Origin: a virus
Taxonomy: Duplodnaviria > Caudoviricetes
Length of the DNA: 33,543 nucleotides
Direction: 5' to 3' (one strand)
Virus record (IMG/VR): IMGVR_UViG_3300032332_000629
Location: 1 to 33,543 of that record
Below the pieces are notes generated by a model. That model worked only from the letters and a program-made list of their open reading frames with translations, ran no database searches and had not been told where the DNA came from. Shown in pieces: positions 61 through 16,186 of the stretch (position 1 is the first letter of the stretch; every line of letters begins with the position of its first letter). A program made the position numbers and the translations under genes.

Positions 61-546
61 ATGCCCAAACCTGAGCCCGAACTGACCGCCATCGCCGAGG
101 CGCTCCAGATCGACGTTCGCACGCTTAGAAACTGGCGCAAACGCGACGGCTTCCCGCACGGACAGAACGCCGACGCGGTGAAAGCGTGGGCAGACCGGAA
201 CGGGCTGGGGCGCCTCAAGGACTCGACGCTTTCCGAACTCAAAGCCGAACTCATGCGCGAGCAAATTCGCCTCGCCCGCGCAAAGAACGAACGCGAAGCC
301 GGCGACGTGATTGACCGCGAAGTCGTCGAAGCGATGCTCGTGACCCTCGGCCAAAAGCTTGACCTGCTCCTTCGCCTCAAGCTGGAGGTCGAGCTAGGGC
401 CGCGCGTCGCCGGCAAGAACGCAGCCGAGGCGAACGTCGAGGGCGGGGAAATCCTGCAGGAGATCCGCGAAGTCATCAACGGCAACATCGCGAAGTTCCA
501 GGGTGATGCGCTGGCGCAGTCGCGGGAGGCGGATGCGATTGCTTGA
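61..546 (+). CDS. terS: Terminase small subunit (lambda Nu1-like)
   Basis: N-terminal HTH (IAEALQIDVRTLRNWRKRDGFP), then coiled coil and 'ARAKNEREAGDVIDREVV', typical of Nu1-like proteins; ATG at 61 preferred over the TTG at 40; GpA-like terL lies downstream. Confidence 0.85.
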   Translation: MPKPEPELTAIAEALQIDVRTLRNWRKRDGFPHGQNADAVKAWADRNGLGRLKDSTLSELKAELMREQIRLARAKNEREAGDVIDREVVEAMLVTLGQKLDLLLRLKLEVELGPRVAGKNAAEANVEGGEILQEIREVINGNIAKFQGDALAQSREADAIA

Positions 547-589
547 ATTAACTCTTGCAATCAATCAAGCGGTGTGAATGCTCTGACGC

Positions 590-796
590 ATGAACAACAC
601 CACCGCCGCCAAGGTTAAGACCCTATTCAACGCTATCGCCGCCAACTACCGCGCACGCGGTGATTCCCACCCCGAGGTGGCCGCCAAGTTTCAGGTCGAG
701 TTGGTTTTGCAGACCGCAAAAAGCCAGCCGATGTATATCAATCAGCTTCTCGATGAAGAAATCGAAGACACCCTCAAGGCGGGGCGGGCAGCATGA
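590..796 (+). CDS. Hypothetical protein (68 aa)
   Basis: ATG ORF with a TTGCAA -35-like box upstream (555-560); ATGA overlap with the next gene. Confidence 0.65.
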   Translation: MNNTTAAKVKTLFNAIAANYRARGDSHPEVAAKFQVELVLQTAKSQPMYINQLLDEEIEDTLKAGRAA

Positions 797-1173
797 GGGG
801 CGGCAAACGCCAAGGCGCAGGCCGCAAGCCGCTCCCGCCTGACCAGCGGGCCGTCGGCATCACGGTGCGCGTGCGCCCTGAAATCGCCGCACGCTTCGCT
901 GCATGGTGCACGCTGCGAGGCGTGAGCCAGTCGCGCGCGTTCTCGGCGTGGGTCAAACGCTCGTTGCGCGATCTGGTCGATGCGGTCCATCCAATTTCCC
1001 GCGAGTGCGGGGACAGTAGCTCAGACTGCGACCGCTACACTTCGCCGGTAAGTAAGAGCAACACCGGCACTATTTCTTCCCCGAACATCGGCAGTCAGCG
1101 AACCCGGCCCCTAGTATCCGACAACCAAAACGCCGAAGCGCCTACCACTGAGCCACGTCCGGGTTCGCTGTGA
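793..1173 (+). CDS. Ribbon-helix-helix-type small DNA-binding protein with a read-through C-terminal tail
   Basis: 'RGGKRQGAGRKP' motif, beta-strand 'ITVRV' and two helices; residues after about 60 look like an extension running into attC-like site 1. Confidence 0.65.
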   Translation: MRGGKRQGAGRKPLPPDQRAVGITVRVRPEIAARFAAWCTLRGVSQSRAFSAWVKRSLRDLVDAVHPISRECGDSSSDCDRYTSPVSKSNTGTISSPNIGSQRTRPLVSDNQNAEAPTTEPRPGSL

Positions 1174-1187
1174 TGCCTTGGTTCTCC
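1080..1187 (-). other. attC-like recombination site 1 (108 bp)
   Basis: + strand CCCGAAC-ATCGGCAGT-CAGCGAACCCGG...CCGGGTTCGCTG-TGATGCCTTG-GTTCTCC; 12-bp perfect inner stem; right spacer 10 nt rather than 9. Confidence 0.75.
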
Positions 1188-1212
1188 CTCTTCTTTTTCC
1201 CGTAAATCGCCC

Positions 1213-1722
1213 GTGTCCTCAACTCATCAACAATCACAACTAACTAATCACACTCGCGTGTGCTTCAGTCCTCTGTCTGTGGTGCCTTCGTTCTTTGAGG
1301 CTGACACTCAGGCCCCGGAATCGTCCTCACCGGACGGGAATAAATTTTCAACCGCGGAGGCCGTGGGCGAGCGCGCTGCGCTTATCCACGGCGCTGCGCC
1401 GGTCTGCCGCCGCGTCGTCGCGCTGCGCGACGATGGCCGATGGCTCTGCCTGAGCTGCGCGGAGCCGCACACGATCAAAGCGCCAAGCGGTCCGGGCGCA
1501 TACTCGCCGATGCGATACGCGCTCACGGAAAAGGCACGCCGCGAGCAACGCGTGCGCGCTGGCCTGTGCGCGGAGTGCAGCCAGCCGCGCGGCATCCACG
1601 GCAACGCCCGCCTCTGTGAAACGCACCGCGCCAAGTCGGCCGCTCGGAAGCGCCGGATGCGCGAGCGAGCGATGCACGCGATCCGCGATAACCTCTATGG
1701 CCACCGGGCCGACATACCATGA
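1213..1722 (+). CDS. Hypothetical Cys-rich basic protein (cassette A); true start uncertain, possibly ATG 1511
   Basis: CxxC motifs (CLSC, CAEC...LCETH) and basic tail; ATGA overlap with 1719; N-terminal half does not look protein-like. Confidence 0.45.
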   Translation: MSSTHQQSQLTNHTRVCFSPLSVVPSFFEADTQAPESSSPDGNKFSTAEAVGERAALIHGAAPVCRRVVALRDDGRWLCLSCAEPHTIKAPSGPGAYSPMRYALTEKARREQRVRAGLCAECSQPRGIHGNARLCETHRAKSAARKRRMRERAMHAIRDNLYGHRADIP

Positions 1723-2000
1723 TCGAACCGCAACAACTCATCCGGCGGCATGACCGCATCCGCGCCGTCTGGCAGCGCACGAAGTCAACTAACACGGCAG
1801 AGCGTTGCCGGCTACGCCTAGCCTCCATCGCGCGGGAGGCGCGCGAAAACTTTGACCACGCGCACGCGAGGGCAGTGGGTGCTCGTATGGTCCTCCGGCT
1901 GCCTGACGACCGTGCGCGTGTGTCCTCTTTGGCGAACGCCGGGGATGAGCCACGGCCGCTCGGGGCCGTTGGCTCTGGCCCCTCGTTCGAAAGGCCGTAG
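1719..2000 (+). CDS. Hypothetical protein (cassette A), C-terminus reads through attC-like site 2
   Basis: ATG ORF coupled to the upstream stop; ends LANAGDEPRPLGAVGSGPSFERP across the hairpin. Confidence 0.55.
   Translation: MIEPQQLIRRHDRIRAVWQRTKSTNTAERCRLRLASIAREARENFDHAHARAVGARMVLRLPDDRARVSSLANAGDEPRPLGAVGSGPSFERP
1931..1991 (-). other. attC-like recombination site 2 (61 bp, classic '59-base element' size)
   Basis: + strand GGCGAAC-GCCGGGGAT-GAGCCA-CGGCC-loop-GGCCG-T-TGGCTC-TGGCCCCTC-GTTCGAA: AAC-N9-stem...stem with extra T-N9-GTT, the layout of an attC bottom strand. Confidence 0.85.
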
Positions 2001-2016
2001 AAAATGCCCTCGTAAA

Positions 2017-2072
2017 TGTAACGCCACGACACACGATAAATCTTGCAAACACTGTAACGCTACGCCACAAAT
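2017..2072 (+). promoter_or_regulatory. Cassette B promoter with two operator-like repeats
   Basis: TGTAACGCCACGACACA (2017-2033) and TGTAACGCTACGCCACA (2053-2069), 15/17 identical imperfect palindromes, flanking TTGCAA (2043-2048). Confidence 0.6.
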
Positions 2073-2077
2073 AGGAC

Positions 2078-2551
2078 ATGGACACAACGACCACACAACG
2101 CAGGGCGAAAGCTGGCGGCGAATACGGCGCGAACGGCGACTGGTATGAGGGCGGGAAATTTATCGCCACGGAGGAAGACACCATCAAGCGCGCTCCCATG
2201 CGCCACGAGGTCACGCCCGAAGAGGCCGCGCGCCGCGCCGCCCGTGACGAGGAAAACCGCATCACCGCCGCGCGCGTGCAAGCGTGGCTGACCGAGCGCC
2301 GCGCCCGCTTCGCTGATGTAATCGCGCGCCTGACGGCCAATCCGGGGCATGACCCGAAGTGGTGGGCCGAACTGCTGGCCAACGGCCAAGCGGGATTTCA
2401 CGCCAGCCTCGGCGTGCAACTGCGCGACGGCGGATCGCTCTCGGCGCGGCAGGCCGAATACGTGGCGAAGGCGATTTTCGGGCGCTGCAACCGCAAGAAC
2501 GCCGAAGCGTGGGACGCGCTGGTGTCTGGTCTGGTGGAGGACTTCAAATGA
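2078..2551 (+). CDS. Hypothetical protein (cassette B)
   Basis: ATG with AGGAC upstream; 'RAKAGGEYGANGDWYEGGKFI' N-terminus and 'LSARQAEYVAK' C-terminal helix; coherent codon usage. Confidence 0.8.
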   Translation: MDTTTTQRRAKAGGEYGANGDWYEGGKFIATEEDTIKRAPMRHEVTPEEAARRAARDEENRITAARVQAWLTERRARFADVIARLTANPGHDPKWWAELLANGQAGFHASLGVQLRDGGSLSARQAEYVAKAIFGRCNRKNAEAWDALVSGLVEDFK

Positions 2552-2784
2552 CCGCCGCCGAATACAAGCGCCGCCGCGCCGCGCTCGGGCACACGCAGGC
2601 GACTCTCGCCAAGGTGCTCGGGCTCGCTCGCGGGACAATCGCCCGCCGCGAAACCGGCGCGCTCCCCATACCTACCGAAGCGGCGATTGCGCTTTCTTCG
2701 CTCCCGAAAACCAAGACGCGCCCGCATAGGCCGTCGAACGCCAGCGGTCAGCCACACCCGACCGAACACGATAAACCTCTATGA
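2548..2784 (+). CDS. XRE/Cro-like HTH regulator (cassette B)
   Basis: MTAAEYKRRRAALGHTQATLAKVLGLARGTIARRETGALPIP; ATGA overlap with the upstream gene; GGAGG upstream. Confidence 0.85.
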   Translation: MTAAEYKRRRAALGHTQATLAKVLGLARGTIARRETGALPIPTEAAIALSSLPKTKTRPHRPSNASGQPHPTEHDKPL

Positions 2785-2861
2785 GCACTCAACCCGACAG
2801 CGCACCAGCAGCGACCGCCAAAGCCCCGGACAAGGGTGTTGGCTGTGACGCTTTGTTAGCC
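2733..2861 (-). other. attC-like recombination site 3 (129 bp; loop holds ATG 2781)
   Basis: + strand GTCGAAC-GCCAGCGGT-CAGCCA-CACCC...GGGTG-T-TGGCTG-TGACGCTTT-GTTAGCC; N9 spacers on both sides and an extra T on the right arm. Confidence 0.85.
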
Positions 2862-3149
2862 TCCGATGGACACATCTACGAAATAAACCAAGGCTACTCT
2901 GGCATCTACATCATGCACCGGGATGGCACGGTGACGGGCTCGCCGCTGCCGTCCGAGCTTCAATTCTGGCAACAGGCGCAAGCGTATCGAGCGAAGCTCA
3001 AACACATCGTCGAAGTCATCGAGGCTCACGAAATCGAATCTCTTTCGTGCGACCGCGACGGCAACGAGTATTGCGACTGCCTGCGCCGCGCCGCCAAGGA
3101 CGCAAACCTTCTTCTGGCTAACGATAAAGCTCAGACACGAGCCGATTGA
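2781..3149 (+). CDS. Hypothetical protein (cassette C)
   Basis: Starts in the loop of site 3 and ends in the left arm/loop of site 4. Confidence 0.75.
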   Translation: MSTQPDSAPAATAKAPDKGVGCDALLASDGHIYEINQGYSGIYIMHRDGTVTGSPLPSELQFWQQAQAYRAKLKHIVEVIEAHEIESLSCDRDGNEYCDCLRRAAKDANLLLANDKAQTRAD

Positions 3150-3304
3150 ACGCAGAATCTTTCTATGAAAATCGAACCAATGCCAGAAGGCACCGGCGCA
3201 CTAATCGCGCGCATGGCTGCCGATGATCGTAAAGCCGCGAGCGCAAAAGCCATCGTCGAATCGCAGGCCCAGCAGGCTCGTTGTTCTGTGGCGCTGGGTT
3301 CGGC
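3116..3304 (-). other. attC-like recombination site 4 (189 bp; loop holds ATG 3165)
   Basis: + strand GGCTAAC-GATAAAGCT-CAGACA-CGAGCC...GGCTCG-T-TGTTCTG-TGGCGCTGG-GTTCGGC; N9 spacers, extra Ts on the right arm; loop longer than typical attC. Confidence 0.75.
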
Positions 3305-3548
3305 GTCTGAACTGCGAATCAGCGGAGAAAACGCCCGAATCATAATCGTGAATTGTCACGCCCTCATGCGCCACAAATTCCGCCGCACGCCGTTGTGGTC
3401 GATGGTCAGCCAAATCACCGGCCACGGCTCGGGCTACTCTTGGGAAATCTGCAAAAGTGCAAACCTCGATGGCGGTCAAAACTGTGGGGTCGAACGCCTC
3501 AAGGACTTTCCGCCGAACAAGGCAGATATGCCGACTTGCAGCAAATAA
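3165..3548 (+). CDS. Hypothetical protein (cassette D)
   Basis: Starts in the loop of site 4; core 'TPLWSMVSQITGHGSGYSWEICKSANLD'; ends across the terminal half-site. Confidence 0.75.
   Translation: MKIEPMPEGTGALIARMAADDRKAASAKAIVESQAQQARCSVALGSASELRISGENARIIIVNCHALMRHKFRRTPLWSMVSQITGHGSGYSWEICKSANLDGGQNCGVERLKDFPPNKADMPTCSK
3511..3535 (-). other. Terminal half-site (attI/attG-like simple site) bounding the array
   Basis: - strand GCATATC-TGCCTT-GTTCGGCG: L-like box, 6-nt spacer, GTT core; no partner hairpin arm seen downstream on +. Confidence 0.55.
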
Positions 3549-3557
3549 CGCCCGCTA

Positions 3558-3835
3558 ATGCTCGCCGCCCTCCTCCGCTACTCCCGCCGCGAACGCCGCG
3601 CCGTTGCCCAATCGTGGGCGCGGCGCTCGCACGCGACGCGGGCTGCTCGGCGCATGGAGCGCGGGCCGGATGCCGACACGCTCCGCCGTCGGGCATTGCA
3701 CGATGCGCGAGGCAAAGTGGTTCGCGAGGGCGTCACTTACCACAGAGACGGGCGCGGTTTCGCGCTTGGTGCAAGGGGCGCGGAATCAGTCAGAGCGAAG
3801 TGTTTTCCACTTTCGTTCTTCACCTTATCGCGTGA
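3558..3835 (+). pseudogene. Arg-rich ORF joined out of frame to a 3' fragment of an RHH paralog (3752-3835)
   Basis: ARFRAWCKGRGISQSEVFS matches ARFAAWCTLRGVSQSRAFS of 793-1173 at 13/19 positions but has no N-terminus. Confidence 0.5.
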
Positions 3836-3861: not shown

Positions 3862-4053
3862 ATGAAAACCAACACACTACAAAATAAACTAGATCAAATT
3901 CAAAAGCTATTCGACGCCAAGTGCGACAAAAACGCCGAACTGGCATATCAAATAAAGAAGGCTCGTGACCTAACTGCGACTCACGCCGAGGAATACCCAA
4001 ACACATTTGCGCAACTCATGTTAGATTGGGCCAGAATAAATAAGAATCTTTGA
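3862..4053 (+). CDS. Hypothetical AT-rich helical protein (63 aa)
   Basis: ATG 3862 (MKTNTLQNKLDQ...); stop overlaps the terL TTG start. Confidence 0.65.
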   Translation: MKTNTLQNKLDQIQKLFDAKCDKNAELAYQIKKARDLTATHAEEYPNTFAQLMLDWARINKNL

Positions 4054-5840
4054 CCGCCTCCGACGCACTCCTCGCCAAGCTGCGCCTCCCGCAGCCCGAC
4101 CGCTCTCCGATCTACGAGTGGGCGCGGAAGCACATCACGCTCCCCGAGAGCTACGCAACGCCGGGGCCGTTCAACGCAAAGATCACGCCTTGGCTGATTC
4201 CGATCTTCGACGCGCTCCAGAATCCGCTAGTGCGCCGGGTGCATTTCCGCAAAGCCGTTCAAATCGGCGGCACGCTCGTGGCTGACATCTGGGTTCCGTG
4301 GCTCATCGCAAACGACGCGGGGCCGATTTCGTGGACGATGCAGACCGACGAAATGGTCGAGAAGCATTGCAAATCGCGCCTGAACCCACTGCTCGAACGG
4401 TGTAAGCCCGTCGCGTCGATGCTCCCGAAGCCGGGACCGAACCGGATGACTACCGAGATTTACTTCGGCGGATTCTTCCTCTCGCTCAACCCCGCGAATC
4501 TTTCGACGCAGCAGTCGCAGTCAATTCGTTACAAGGTAAACGACGAAATCTGGCTCCCGCGCTGGCAGGAGGTTTACGGTCACGCCGTCGCGCGCGTGTC
4601 GAAGTTTGAAGAGGTCGGGCGCTCGAAGATTTACAACGTGTCGCAAGCGCCCGAAATGTCCGCCGAGGTCGGCAACGTCGAAGATACGAGCTATCGCGCC
4701 GGCAATCAGCAGGAGTGGCACGCGCTTTGCCCGTCGTGCGGCAAGGCTCATCCCGTGACGTTCTCGCAGCCTTCGATCGACGACAAGGAAACGCGCGGCG
4801 GAGTCGTCTGGGACCGCACAGCGAAGCGGGACGACGAGACGTGGGACGTTGCGCGAGCGGTCGAGAGCACGCGCTTTCGCTGTATTCACTGCGGTCACGA
4901 GTCGCCGGACAACGACGCGACGCGCAACCATTGGCGCAAGACCGGGCATTACATCGCGCAACGAGAGGACGCGCCGGCGGAGATCCAGAGTTTTCGCATC
5001 GAGGCACTCGTGGCGCGCCCGATGAAGATGCTCGTGGAGGAGTTTTGCGAGGCCGAGAACCAATGGGCGAAGCGCGGCGAGGACCGCATGAAGATGGAGT
5101 TTCGCACGAAGCGCGAAGCCAAGCCGTGGATCGTCGAAAAGAAGACGGTCAATCTCTTTGTGCAGTCGAGCGGCTACAAGCTGGCTGACCACGCGCAAGG
5201 CCAAGCCATCGAGAACGAGGCAATCCGCTTCATGACCATTGACCGGCAGCTCGATCACTGGTGGGTCGAGATCGGCGCCTTCGCAACCAATGGCGGCACG
5301 CGCTACCGACAGCTGCACTTCGGGCGCATTGACACGCGCGACCAACTGCGCGCGCTTCAACTGCGCTACAAGGTCGCCGACGCGTGCGTTGCGCAGGACC
5401 GCGGCTATCGTCCGAGCGACGTTGACCGCGACTGCGCCGACTTTGGGTGGCGCTCAATGCGAGGCCACGCGCGGAAGACCTGGACAATGCGCGACGACGC
5501 GACGGGCAAGCTGATTAACTTCCCGTTTTCCGATCCGCAGGTCAGTGACTACCGCGGCGGTGACGTTTACTTCTACAACTGGAGCGGCGACTACTTCAAG
5601 GACGTGCTCCAGACCGCGCTTGAGGGCAAAGGCGACTTGAAATGGGAGCTGCCCGACGACGTGAACCCGCTGTATTTGCAGCACCTCAAAGGCGAATCCA
5701 AAGTCGAGGTTCGCGCGGGCGTTTGGGAGTGGCGCGAAGTCAAAAGCAACGCCGCAAATCACGGTCTCGACACGTCGGCCATGATGCTATGTATCGCGAC
5801 GATTGCAGGCGTCGTGCGCTACGTTCCTGCGACGGCGTAG
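4050..5840 (+). CDS. terL: Terminase large subunit (lambda GpA family)
   Basis: 'IYEWA...PGPF...TPW', Walker A-like 'RKAVQIGGT', Walker B 'YKVNDE', CPSCG/CIHCG zinc motifs, C-terminal 'NHGLD' nuclease motif. Confidence 0.93.
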   Translation: MTASDALLAKLRLPQPDRSPIYEWARKHITLPESYATPGPFNAKITPWLIPIFDALQNPLVRRVHFRKAVQIGGTLVADIWVPWLIANDAGPISWTMQTDEMVEKHCKSRLNPLLERCKPVASMLPKPGPNRMTTEIYFGGFFLSLNPANLSTQQSQSIRYKVNDEIWLPRWQEVYGHAVARVSKFEEVGRSKIYNVSQAPEMSAEVGNVEDTSYRAGNQQEWHALCPSCGKAHPVTFSQPSIDDKETRGGVVWDRTAKRDDETWDVARAVESTRFRCIHCGHESPDNDATRNHWRKTGHYIAQREDAPAEIQSFRIEALVARPMKMLVEEFCEAENQWAKRGEDRMKMEFRTKREAKPWIVEKKTVNLFVQSSGYKLADHAQGQAIENEAIRFMTIDRQLDHWWVEIGAFATNGGTRYRQLHFGRIDTRDQLRALQLRYKVADACVAQDRGYRPSDVDRDCADFGWRSMRGHARKTWTMRDDATGKLINFPFSDPQVSDYRGGDVYFYNWSGDYFKDVLQTALEGKGDLKWELPDDVNPLYLQHLKGESKVEVRAGVWEWREVKSNAANHGLDTSAMMLCIATIAGVVRYVPATA

Positions 5841-14485: not shown

Positions 14486-16186
14486 ATGCCTCGAATCTCA
14501 TTGTGCGTAATCTGCGGGAACGAATCCGAGCACATCGCCGCAATGCTCAAATCGTTCGCGCCGTGCTTCGATGAACTCTCGCTCGTGCGAGCAATCGGCA
14601 AGCGCGAGCCGGACGACACGATGGAGCTCGCTGAAGTTTGGTGCGAAGCGAACGGCAAAACTTTTCTGCGCGCCGAGTATCGCAACGGATTCGCGGCGCG
14701 CGATTGGGACCACGTCGATTCGTTCGGTGCGGCGCGCAATCAGGCATTCCGGCAGGCAACGGGCGACTGGCTGATTTGGGCCGACTGCGACGACACATCG
14801 GAAGGCGCGGAAAAACTGCGCGACGATCTCGGCGCAATTCCCGCAGACGTCTCAATGGTGCGCTACGCCTACGACGTGCGCGGGAGCGGGAAAAAGCTTA
14901 TGAGGGAGCGAGCGATTCGCTCGGCAGCGTTTCGCGATGGGCGCGTCTGGCATCATGCCGTGCACGAAAACCTTTTGATTCTTCCCGGCGACAAGCACGA
15001 GGACCGGCACGCGTGCGTCTGGGTTCACTCGCCGAAGACCGTAAAGCGCGAGAACCGTCGGCGAAATCTGCGCATCCTCGGCAACAGCGTGATCGAGTGC
15101 GCAACGCAGTATTTTTACATCCACCAAGAGCACTATTGCAACCAGGACAAGCAGGCCGCGGAACAGTTCGGCAAACTCGCGCTGGGCTTCCCTAACCTGC
15201 AACCGTCGTTTCGATACGAGACGCTTCTCAACCTCGCGCGCATCTGCGGCAATTATCGCGAGGCGATGACGTATTGCATGGAAGCGCACGGCATCTTCCC
15301 GTGGTGCCGCGAGGCCATCGCCGCAATGATTCTCCTTCACTTCGAGAAACGCGACGCTCGGCGCGCGACATGGTGGGCCGACCGTATGCTCGAACTTCGC
15401 GAGCCAAGCGAAGCGGAAAGGCCGTGGACGCATGAGGCGAAGTATTACGGATGGGCCGGCTTCGACATTGCGGCTCGAGCGCACCGCATGGCGGAAAACG
15501 CGAACAAGGCGAGCGAGCTTCAACGCAAGTTTCACGCGGGAGTGACGCCGACGATTTCGCTGATTCACGCGACGCGCGGTCGCTCAACGAAGGCGGTCGG
15601 ATGCCGCGAGTCTTGGATGAACACGGCGGCAAATCCTTGGAACGTCGAGCACGTCTTCGCGGTGGATTCCGACGACAAGGAAAGCGCGCAAATGTCGAAG
15701 CAGTTTGTGAGCGTGCGCAGTGAGAAAAGGTCGTGCGTCGCGGCGTGGAATCTCGCGGCAAAGGCGGCGCGCGGAGATTTAATTGTGCAGCTTTCCGACG
15801 ACTGGTTACCTTCACCGAACTGGGACCTGAAGTTGCTGGACCTCGTGAAAGGACGCGACCTCGCGCGCGAGCAAATCGTGATCGCGGTAAACGACGGTCA
15901 TCGGCGCGATGACCTGCTCTGCATGGCGATTCTTTCCCGCGCTCGGCTTGAGGCGCAGGGCGAGCTTTTCTTCGACGGCTACGAATCCGTTTTCAGTGAC
16001 AACGAGTTTTCGGTGCGCGCGTTTGCCGACGGTGTCGTGGTCGATGCGCGCGACCGCATCACGTTTGAGCACGTCCATCCGGCATTCGGGAAAGCGCCGA
16101 TGGATAAAACCTACGAGCACAACAATTCAAGCGAACGCTACAGGGCCGGCAAGGCGTTGTTCGACGCTCGCAACCCATCAAAATGA
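14486..16186 (+). CDS. Double glycosyltransferase (GT-A/GT2, TPR-like linker, GT-A)
   Basis: 'ISLCVICGNE', 'FGAARNQAFRQATGDWLIWADCDD'; helical repeats; second domain 'ISLIHATRGR...AAWNLAAKAARGDLIVQLSDD'. Confidence 0.9.
   Translation: MPRISLCVICGNESEHIAAMLKSFAPCFDELSLVRAIGKREPDDTMELAEVWCEANGKTFLRAEYRNGFAARDWDHVDSFGAARNQAFRQATGDWLIWADCDDTSEGAEKLRDDLGAIPADVSMVRYAYDVRGSGKKLMRERAIRSAAFRDGRVWHHAVHENLLILPGDKHEDRHACVWVHSPKTVKRENRRRNLRILGNSVIECATQYFYIHQEHYCNQDKQAAEQFGKLALGFPNLQPSFRYETLLNLARICGNYREAMTYCMEAHGIFPWCREAIAAMILLHFEKRDARRATWWADRMLELREPSEAERPWTHEAKYYGWAGFDIAARAHRMAENANKASELQRKFHAGVTPTISLIHATRGRSTKAVGCRESWMNTAANPWNVEHVFAVDSDDKESAQMSKQFVSVRSEKRSCVAAWNLAAKAARGDLIVQLSDDWLPSPNWDLKLLDLVKGRDLAREQIVIAVNDGHRRDDLLCMAILSRARLEAQGELFFDGYESVFSDNEFSVRAFADGVVVDARDRITFEHVHPAFGKAPMDKTYEHNNSSERYRAGKALFDARNPSK

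Follow-up and report, generated by a model that had tools for sequence, protein, structure and literature searches.

Integron cassettes are taken to be whole genes carried on the top strand, and strand selection is thought to keep them so. How such cassettes originate is, to our knowledge, an open question. Here we analysed a window of 33,543 bp that comprises the whole virus record IMGVR_UViG_3300032332_000629 (Caudoviricetes, about 90% complete), in which a 3.5-kb stretch of small open reading frames (ORFs) between the terminase small and large subunit genes (terS and terL) houses an array of attC-like hairpins. The comparisons below support an array that is inverted relative to canonical integrons and whose recombination sites are themselves translated. 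Positions refer to the window and features lie on the + strand.

Canonical attC sites comprise R′, L′, L″ and R″ boxes with extra bases beside L″ and a 6-bp spacing, and recombination crosses over at the AAC of R′ between cassettes with complementary ends (Nivina et al, 2016; PMC5027507). The phage sites share this plan. They differ in that a canonical cassette gene precedes its attC on the top strand and has a start of its own, whereas the phage genes lie on the bottom strand with the attC at their 5′ side; in that the phage sites are translated, holding a start, a leader and often the stop of the previous gene; and in having T as the first extra base, like the host family described below, where canonical attC usually have G (PMC5027507). 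Clusters of attC sites lacking integron-integrases (CALINs) with functional attC have been published from phages (Qi et al, 2023; PMC9892861). The present locus resembles them as a cluster without an integrase (four sites within 2.2 kb between terS and terL, at least two being required), and the Dam methyltransferase cargo of these CALINs is found here in a related contig (L004); the intI and attI beside the array that would make it a complete integron were not found in the phage region. The main text of that study describes neither bottom-strand genes nor starts inside attC, and the sole site that our scan recovered from its phage TJE1 has ordinary polarity. Peptide-coding attC sites have been designed synthetically (Nivina et al, 2020; PMC7439510), whereas those of the phage are natural and carry start and stop signals. 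Insertion into attG followed by imprecise excision (Loot et al, bioRxiv 2022.09.11.507474) offers a possible route of cassettes into the phage, with pickup of flanking DNA; the available text of that study has no translated or inverted cassettes, and the half-site that ends our array is an attC left arm, unlike a plain genomic attG. Two further papers (PMC8618304 and PMC8352920) added nothing on polarity in their available parts, and inverted, translated attC cassettes in phages were not found among published full texts, a coverage outside which most subscription papers fall.

At four places on the + strand we observed the arrangement AAC-N6-L′(7) ... L″(8, with one extra T)-N5/6-GTT. The AAC and GTT cores are at 1084 and 1181 in site 1 (1080..1187, 108 bp), 1935 and 1985 in site 2 (1931..1991, 61 bp), 2737 and 2855 in site 3 (2733..2861, 129 bp), and 3120 and 3298 in site 4 (3116..3304, 189 bp); a left half-site lacking the GTT core (site 5, 3512..3560, with AAC at 3516, spacer and L′) follows. 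Scanning for AAC-N6-L′(7) ... L″(8)-N5/6-GTT plus an inner stem returned these four on the + strand and nothing on the − strand, compared with a mean of 0.1 and a maximum of 1 in 100 dinucleotide shuffles of the whole window; a stricter scan recovered 3 of the 4, missing site 4. Sites 1–4 all have the attC core pattern (RYYYAAC ... GTTRRRY, with L boxes 5–6 nt inside), the purine/pyrimidine pattern of the outer four positions being loose. Rfam gave no match at gathering score across the window, and a repeat finder returned a weak pair only (sites 2 and 3). The unpaired extra bases lie on the right (GTT) arm, exactly as the initial annotation had read them at site 2 (GGCCG-T-TGGCTC-T) and site 3 (GGGTG-T-TGGCTG-T), with three extra T in site 4 and a single one in site 1; the spacing from first to last extra base is 6 bp in sites 2–4. 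By attC definitions, extra bases on this arm mark the bottom strand (PMC5027507). Overall, the hairpins agree with attC in most respects, and the cassettes depart from canonical ones in gene polarity and in where their genes start.

The inverted polarity that the initial annotation proposed is supported both by the position of these extra bases and by site 2 being identical to host attC whose polarity is known. A pattern made from the − strand of site 2 gathered 56 stretches (55 loci) from a genome collection, nearly all in Verrucomicrobia. Of 63 host loci, some of them overlapping, 28 carry the inner 36 nt of site 2 unchanged; sites 1, 3 and 4 share the attC geometry of this family but not its sequence. 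The longer ORF adjacent to the host sites lies on the strand equivalent to the phage − strand in 44 of 54 contexts and on the other strand in 9, with one tie (4 of 58 contexts had been excluded beforehand for lack of room). One host locus (L110) is a complete integron, with a divergent IntI (TIGR02249, 372 bits) and a sense gene that ends before an attC site with the same inner 36 nt. Because site 2 matches host attC of known polarity, the phage − strand corresponds to the host top strand, and the phage genes lie on the bottom strand. The membership of site 2 in an Opitutaceae chromosomal attC family makes Opitutaceae (Verrucomicrobia) the likely host. Except for the translated hairpin itself, no cassette protein had a match in the host loci.

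The survey of related cassettes that the initial annotation had suggested as a check gave the same polarity. Two gapped patterns yielded 20 loci from 16 viral contigs, which together with the window, L001, L004 and L005 hold 37 distinct sites; the patterns demanded long loops, so that the sample is biased towards these. A codon model trained on the window’s own annotated genes placed downstream coding on the bottom strand at 33 of the 37 phage sites, whereas at 51 of 66 host sites it assigned coding to the top strand. This model was used instead of a longest-open-frame test, which is uninformative in GC-rich DNA and gave 18 versus 18 in the phage loci. In L167, which is distantly related, this locus contains three inverted sites, and the array ends in a left half-site that is coupled to the start of terL.

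Starts within the hairpins are also supported by comparison. As annotated, ATG 2781 lies inside the loop of site 3 and ATG 3165 inside that of site 4. Across the 27 bottom-coded sites whose frame is open for 120 nt, an in-frame ATG is present inside the site in 21, compared with 10 of 54 for the other two frames (Fisher p 4e-7); counted in the loop only, the numbers are 17 and 8. The conserved core of ORF 3165 directly follows the GTT core with no ATG between them, so this gene would need a start inside the hairpin; leaderless homologues start at the beginning of the core, and the alternative starts (an in-frame GTG in L″ and ATGs 3180 and 3213) all fall within the site. In ORF 2781, no further ATG occurs until 19 codons into the core. 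The proposal that genes start in the loop of their own attC therefore gains from the ATG enrichment and the leaderless homologues. The initial description of site 2 as a 61-bp site with no ATG is correct for its length and its loop, but its L′ box does contain an ATG, at 1945. Such an L′ ATG (GATGAGC) is in frame with the downstream gene in L156, L159, L160, L163 and L167, often right after a stop in the R′ spacer, and appears to serve as the gene start there.

The preceding genes read into the hairpins as well. AAC is in frame with the upstream ORF, as Asn, at all five window sites (for site 5, 3516-3165=351). Among the survey sites, it is in frame with the upstream gene in 17 of 31, and another 11 are in the frame where, for 9 of them, the TAA of TAAC forms a stop on the crossover. 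The stop codons of the chimeric genes described below come from the next hairpin. The loop of site 3 holds the stop of a helix-turn-helix (HTH) gene overlapping ATG 2781 (ATGA; TGA/ATG overlap at 2781-2784) and a 26-codon leader, and the loop of site 4 holds a stop at 3147-3149, ATG 3165 and a 46-codon leader. Half-site 5 supplies the stop at 3546-3548 and precedes ATG 3558.

Breakpoints between related DNAs support the hairpin plus its downstream gene as the moving unit. Contigs of eight runs (of which X1 may be the source of the window) break at 1087, 1937, 1939, 2739 and 3515, which are the AAC cores of sites 1, 2, 3 and 5; site 1 is a breakpoint in runs X1 and X11, and a 97% copy of the cassette behind site 2 (cassette B) ends at 2739 in runs X2, X3 and X16. 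Matches to 1944-1987 in runs X2 and X16 were excluded as phage evidence, as they resemble host cassettes. Two terL relatives, L004 (99% terL) and L005 (98%), share site 5 from AAC onward and have different cassettes upstream, and the same stretch recurs in contigs of runs X7, X11, X14 and X15, each with different upstream DNA. The cassette at L004:145-758 encodes the Dam methyltransferase, with a frame that opens in the attC loop. Relatives at 95% in terL have short terS-terL intervals without the array. In protein clusters 2, 6 and 8, the same leader and core are followed by different tails after the Asn. The tetramers at the core ends (after GTT and before the next AAC) are complementary at 14/16 bases in the window and at 61/76 bases in 19 neighbouring pairs, versus 39/76 within sites (perfect in 9/19 versus 0), which fits a circular intermediate. 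Complementarity was dropped as a test between two crossover models, since under each of them the two flanking tetramers are part of the core. The initial view of attC as the 5′ part of a unit with its gene agrees with the AAC breakpoints; it has to be amended in that the genes borrow their stop from the next hairpin and that leaders re-pair with cores at GTT. As a separate observation, arrays end in a stop-supplying left half-site in the window (3512-3560), L167 (2441-2475) and L001 (3211-3245), and in L167 the terL start directly follows the stop. This half-site is a possible substitute for attI; by eye, no resemblance was seen between half-site 5 and the attI region of the host.

By comparison with their homologues, the predicted proteins of ORFs 2781 and 3165 are leader-core-tail chimeras. 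ORF 2781 (2781..3149, 122 aa) consists of a leader from site 3 (2781-2857), a core (2855-3122) and a tail from the left arm of site 4 (3123-3149), and ORF 3165 (3165..3548, 127 aa) of a leader from site 4 (3165-3300), a core with 70 conserved residues (3298-3518) and a tail from half-site 5 (3519-3548). Eighteen of the 25 matches to ORF 3165 are to the core, and 7 are to the leader alone, there ahead of unrelated cores. ORF 2781 has 16 matches: 8 have the 26-residue leader (23-25 identical) on mutually unrelated cores, 7 have part of the core and 1 has both. Counting the window’s own, the site-3 leader was found on nine unrelated cores. At the DNA level, the site-3 module recurs complete (AAC to GTTAG) in L155 at 94%, and the flanking DNA on either side is unrelated. 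Conversely, P0001 has a core identical at 68/70 residues to the window’s 3165-family core under an unrelated leader, the cores of P0027-29, identical at 55-57/59 residues, follow three unrelated leaders with the junction at one and the same residue, and the eight compared members of the 70-residue core family have eight different leaders and eight different tails. In chromosomal arrays it is common for different genes to have the same attC; one core under different hairpins calls for a second exchange point. The core bounded by GTT and AAC in L155 and L170 was not counted as a swap, since at 76% identity a swap is indistinguishable from divergence of the leader. Away from the hairpins, the second half of the ORF 2781 core (2990-3110) is common to P0027-P0033 with other first halves, which is mosaicism inside the core.

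Considering these patterns, we think it probable, though far from certain, that the locus is an inverted, phage-borne array of integron type in which the host IntI moves hairpin and gene at AAC and a rarer exchange at GTT re-pairs starts with cores. No match to the tyrosine recombinase family PF00589 was found anywhere in the contig (about 90% complete), and for this reason the enzyme is presumed to be the host IntI, likely acting on the bottom strand. IntI would cut the folded + strand at AA|C and thereby excise and insert hairpin-plus-core units. As AAC would be read as Asn and the next hairpin would give a stop and a start, any cassette order would stay translatable, and the constant half-site 5 would be the probable entry point, an attI-like double-stranded target. 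On the − strand the cut would fall at G|TT, and an exchange there involving two sites would attach a leader to the following core by top-strand recombination with the same enzyme, which probably best explains the re-pairing; top-strand use is documented for some wild-type attC sites (PMC5027507). With the inversion, the genes of the cassettes would stay on the terS-terL transcript. Phage defence is a frequent cargo of host cassettes (two bioRxiv abstracts), and ordinary ones, many of them anti-phage, would, as pure speculation, land here antisense and silent. The initial annotation saw an architecture adapted to slot into a phage operon; the co-orientation and the stop/start overlaps are indeed present, and adaptation would be one way to account for them. 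Possible but doubtful is the more far-reaching idea that IntI uses both cores of these hairpins, so that protein cores lacking start and stop, leaders that bring a start and tails that bring a stop are shuffled in frame; a bottom-strand cut at an AAC close to the end of a gene and a top-strand cut at a GTT close to its start would then turn any phage gene into a new cassette.

Several results weigh against an array moved by the host IntI with exchange at both cores. Site 4, at 189 bp, exceeds the quoted attC length of 57-141 bp, to which sites 1-3 conform, and its predicted folding probability is 4e-4. The bottom strand does not fold more stably, as it does in a trend (not a rule) among attC: constrained fold energies favour the top strand at sites 1, 3 and 4 and tie at site 2 (bottom versus top, +3.2, 0, +2.1 and +1.4 kcal/mol for sites 1-4), with means of -0.03 for 25 phage sites and -0.5 for 29 host sites. 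When folding was unconstrained, the full hairpin was not obtained for sites 3 and 4. Without a bottom-strand folding advantage, strict selectivity is harder to argue and the top strand could also be used; in model integrons, however, top-strand recombination is about 1000-fold weaker (PMC5371416). IntI scored above the cut-off in only 3 of 5 tested host genomes, and attC halves were present at the locus in only 2 of 80 terL relatives, many of whose contigs are short. The evidence for re-pairing at GTT is mostly at the protein level, the junction between a 97% copy of cassette B and a hairpin of the same family is 12 nt beyond GTT, and 5 of 7 carriers of the site-4 leader have another right arm. 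These junctions away from GTT indicate that other recombination also acts.

The simplest competing account is that of the initial annotation alone, in which cassettes move only on the bottom strand at AAC, each leader is fixed to its gene, and shared leaders reflect one attC family that is attached to many genes at cassette formation, as happens in chromosomal arrays. It is in keeping with the AAC position of most DNA breakpoints, with the high conservation that attC sites within one chromosomal integron often show (PMC5027507) and with leader and core staying together in 90% clusters 2, 5 and 6, although clustering at 90% favours leader-sharing pairs. We nevertheless consider it unlikely, as it leaves unexplained both a fixed 70-aa core with eight different leaders and the near-identical cores (68/70; 55-57/59) joined to unrelated leaders at the same residue. 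Re-pairing might instead arise from replication slippage or from the phage RecT-like recombinase acting on short shared right arms, with IntI still working at AAC. This has in its favour that a RecT-like annealing protein and exonuclease VIII are among the phage gene products, that integrase-free deletion of small cassettes between similar sites is known (PMC5371416), and that there are hybrids internal to the loop and one junction 12 nt past GTT. But 9/9 carriers retain the site-3 leader up to the very codon that precedes the core (a search by the whole leader, which is partly biased), and in L155 the homology ends within 2 nt of GTT, leaving 3-5 nt of shared sequence, so we judge this quite unlikely as the main source of the new pairings.

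Two accounts question the array itself. Had the polarity been called wrongly, the − strand would be the substrate, with crossover at GTT between ordinary cassettes that lend a start to the next gene. The GTT breakpoints fit such a reading, and so does a − strand that at sites 1, 2 and 4 folds as well as the + strand or better. The reading is nevertheless very improbable, given that site 2 is identical to host attC whose polarity is known and that DNA breakpoints recur at AAC, including that of half-site 5, which has no GTT core. Finally, the sites might be relics or chance hairpins and the leaders gene-calling artefacts, with which the 18-to-18 result of the longest-open-frame test would be compatible. 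We hold this to be extremely improbable, as four sites were found versus 0.1 by chance, the ATG enrichment is frame-specific, and cassette content varies among 98-99% terL relatives and co-occurring contigs. The preferred reading remains an inverted array moved by the host IntI at AAC, with rarer exchange at GTT.

The array is flanked on the left by the terminase small subunit gene (61..546; PHROG 57, E 2.9e-10) and on the right by terL (4050..5840; PHROG 15, E 2.5e-42). Genes for the portal, major head protein, tail, RecT-like protein, exonuclease VIII and RusA also lie on the + strand, and downstream of the major head protein gene is a 566-aa protein with two glycosyltransferase matches (14486-16186). 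Annotated phage records gave no match, nor did viral contigs searched directly with ORFs 2781 and 3165 and two exact arm/loop patterns. Cassette A (1086..1936) comprises site 1 with ORFs 1213-1722 and 1719-(2000), which have no family match; its core ends are complementary at 3/4 bases. ORFs 793-1173 and 1213-1722 share a frame and are split only by TGA 1171, which closes the former within L″ of site 1, so the first gene of cassette A may have lost its loop start or be read through. To the left, a GTT at 963 and a contig match of run X11 (966-1086) suggest the core of a further cassette whose hairpin was lost. Just before terL, segment 3781-4053 is missing from L005 and L006; it has a weak hairpin near 3790-3820 and a 63-aa ORF, and is possibly a decayed site.

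Cassette B (1937..2738) holds the minimal attC of site 2, a promoter-like element with a repeated 16-mer (2043-2078), a 157-aa gene with its own start and stop (2078-2551), whose homologues start at their own Met, and the HTH gene (2548-2784; Pfam HTH_3), which reads through the next AAC. The latter is the sole cassette gene named by Pfam and PHROGs; ORF 2781 has no family in either, and ORF 3165 has one weak PHROG match of unknown function. The initial annotation gave this minimal-site cassette a promoter of its own. A sigma-70 scan found no promoter at threshold in 1937-2738, but a TTGC motif lies 35 nt before ATG 2078, the same spacing as that of a second promoter-like element (555..592), in which TTGCAA is 35 nt before ATG 590 and which is also below the sigma-70 threshold, and as in two relatives (L009 and L167). 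The element at 555..592 likely drives the small genes, the array and terL. At 555-590 and 2017-2078 of the window, L009:1203-1238 and L167:811-845, TTGC 34-35 nt before an ATG is accompanied by flanking direct or inverted repeats and followed by a small gene and a DNA-binding gene. Judged from sequence, these TTGC units are likely leaderless, self-regulated promoter units.

The phage appears to hold a mirror-image cassette pool that would use the host enzyme and would be expressed only in the phage orientation. Its recombination sites seem to be translated naturally, as so far shown for designed sites. The organisation accounts for a class of short ‘hypothetical proteins’ in phages; the ends that these share are hairpin arms, which mislead homology searches. 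Re-pairing of leaders and cores would make two ideas testable, the natural use of top-strand recombination and the creation of cassettes by an integrase alone; if true, use of both cores would be a recombination-only answer to how cassettes are created. The host integron enzyme thus likely shuffles parts of proteins, beyond whole genes.

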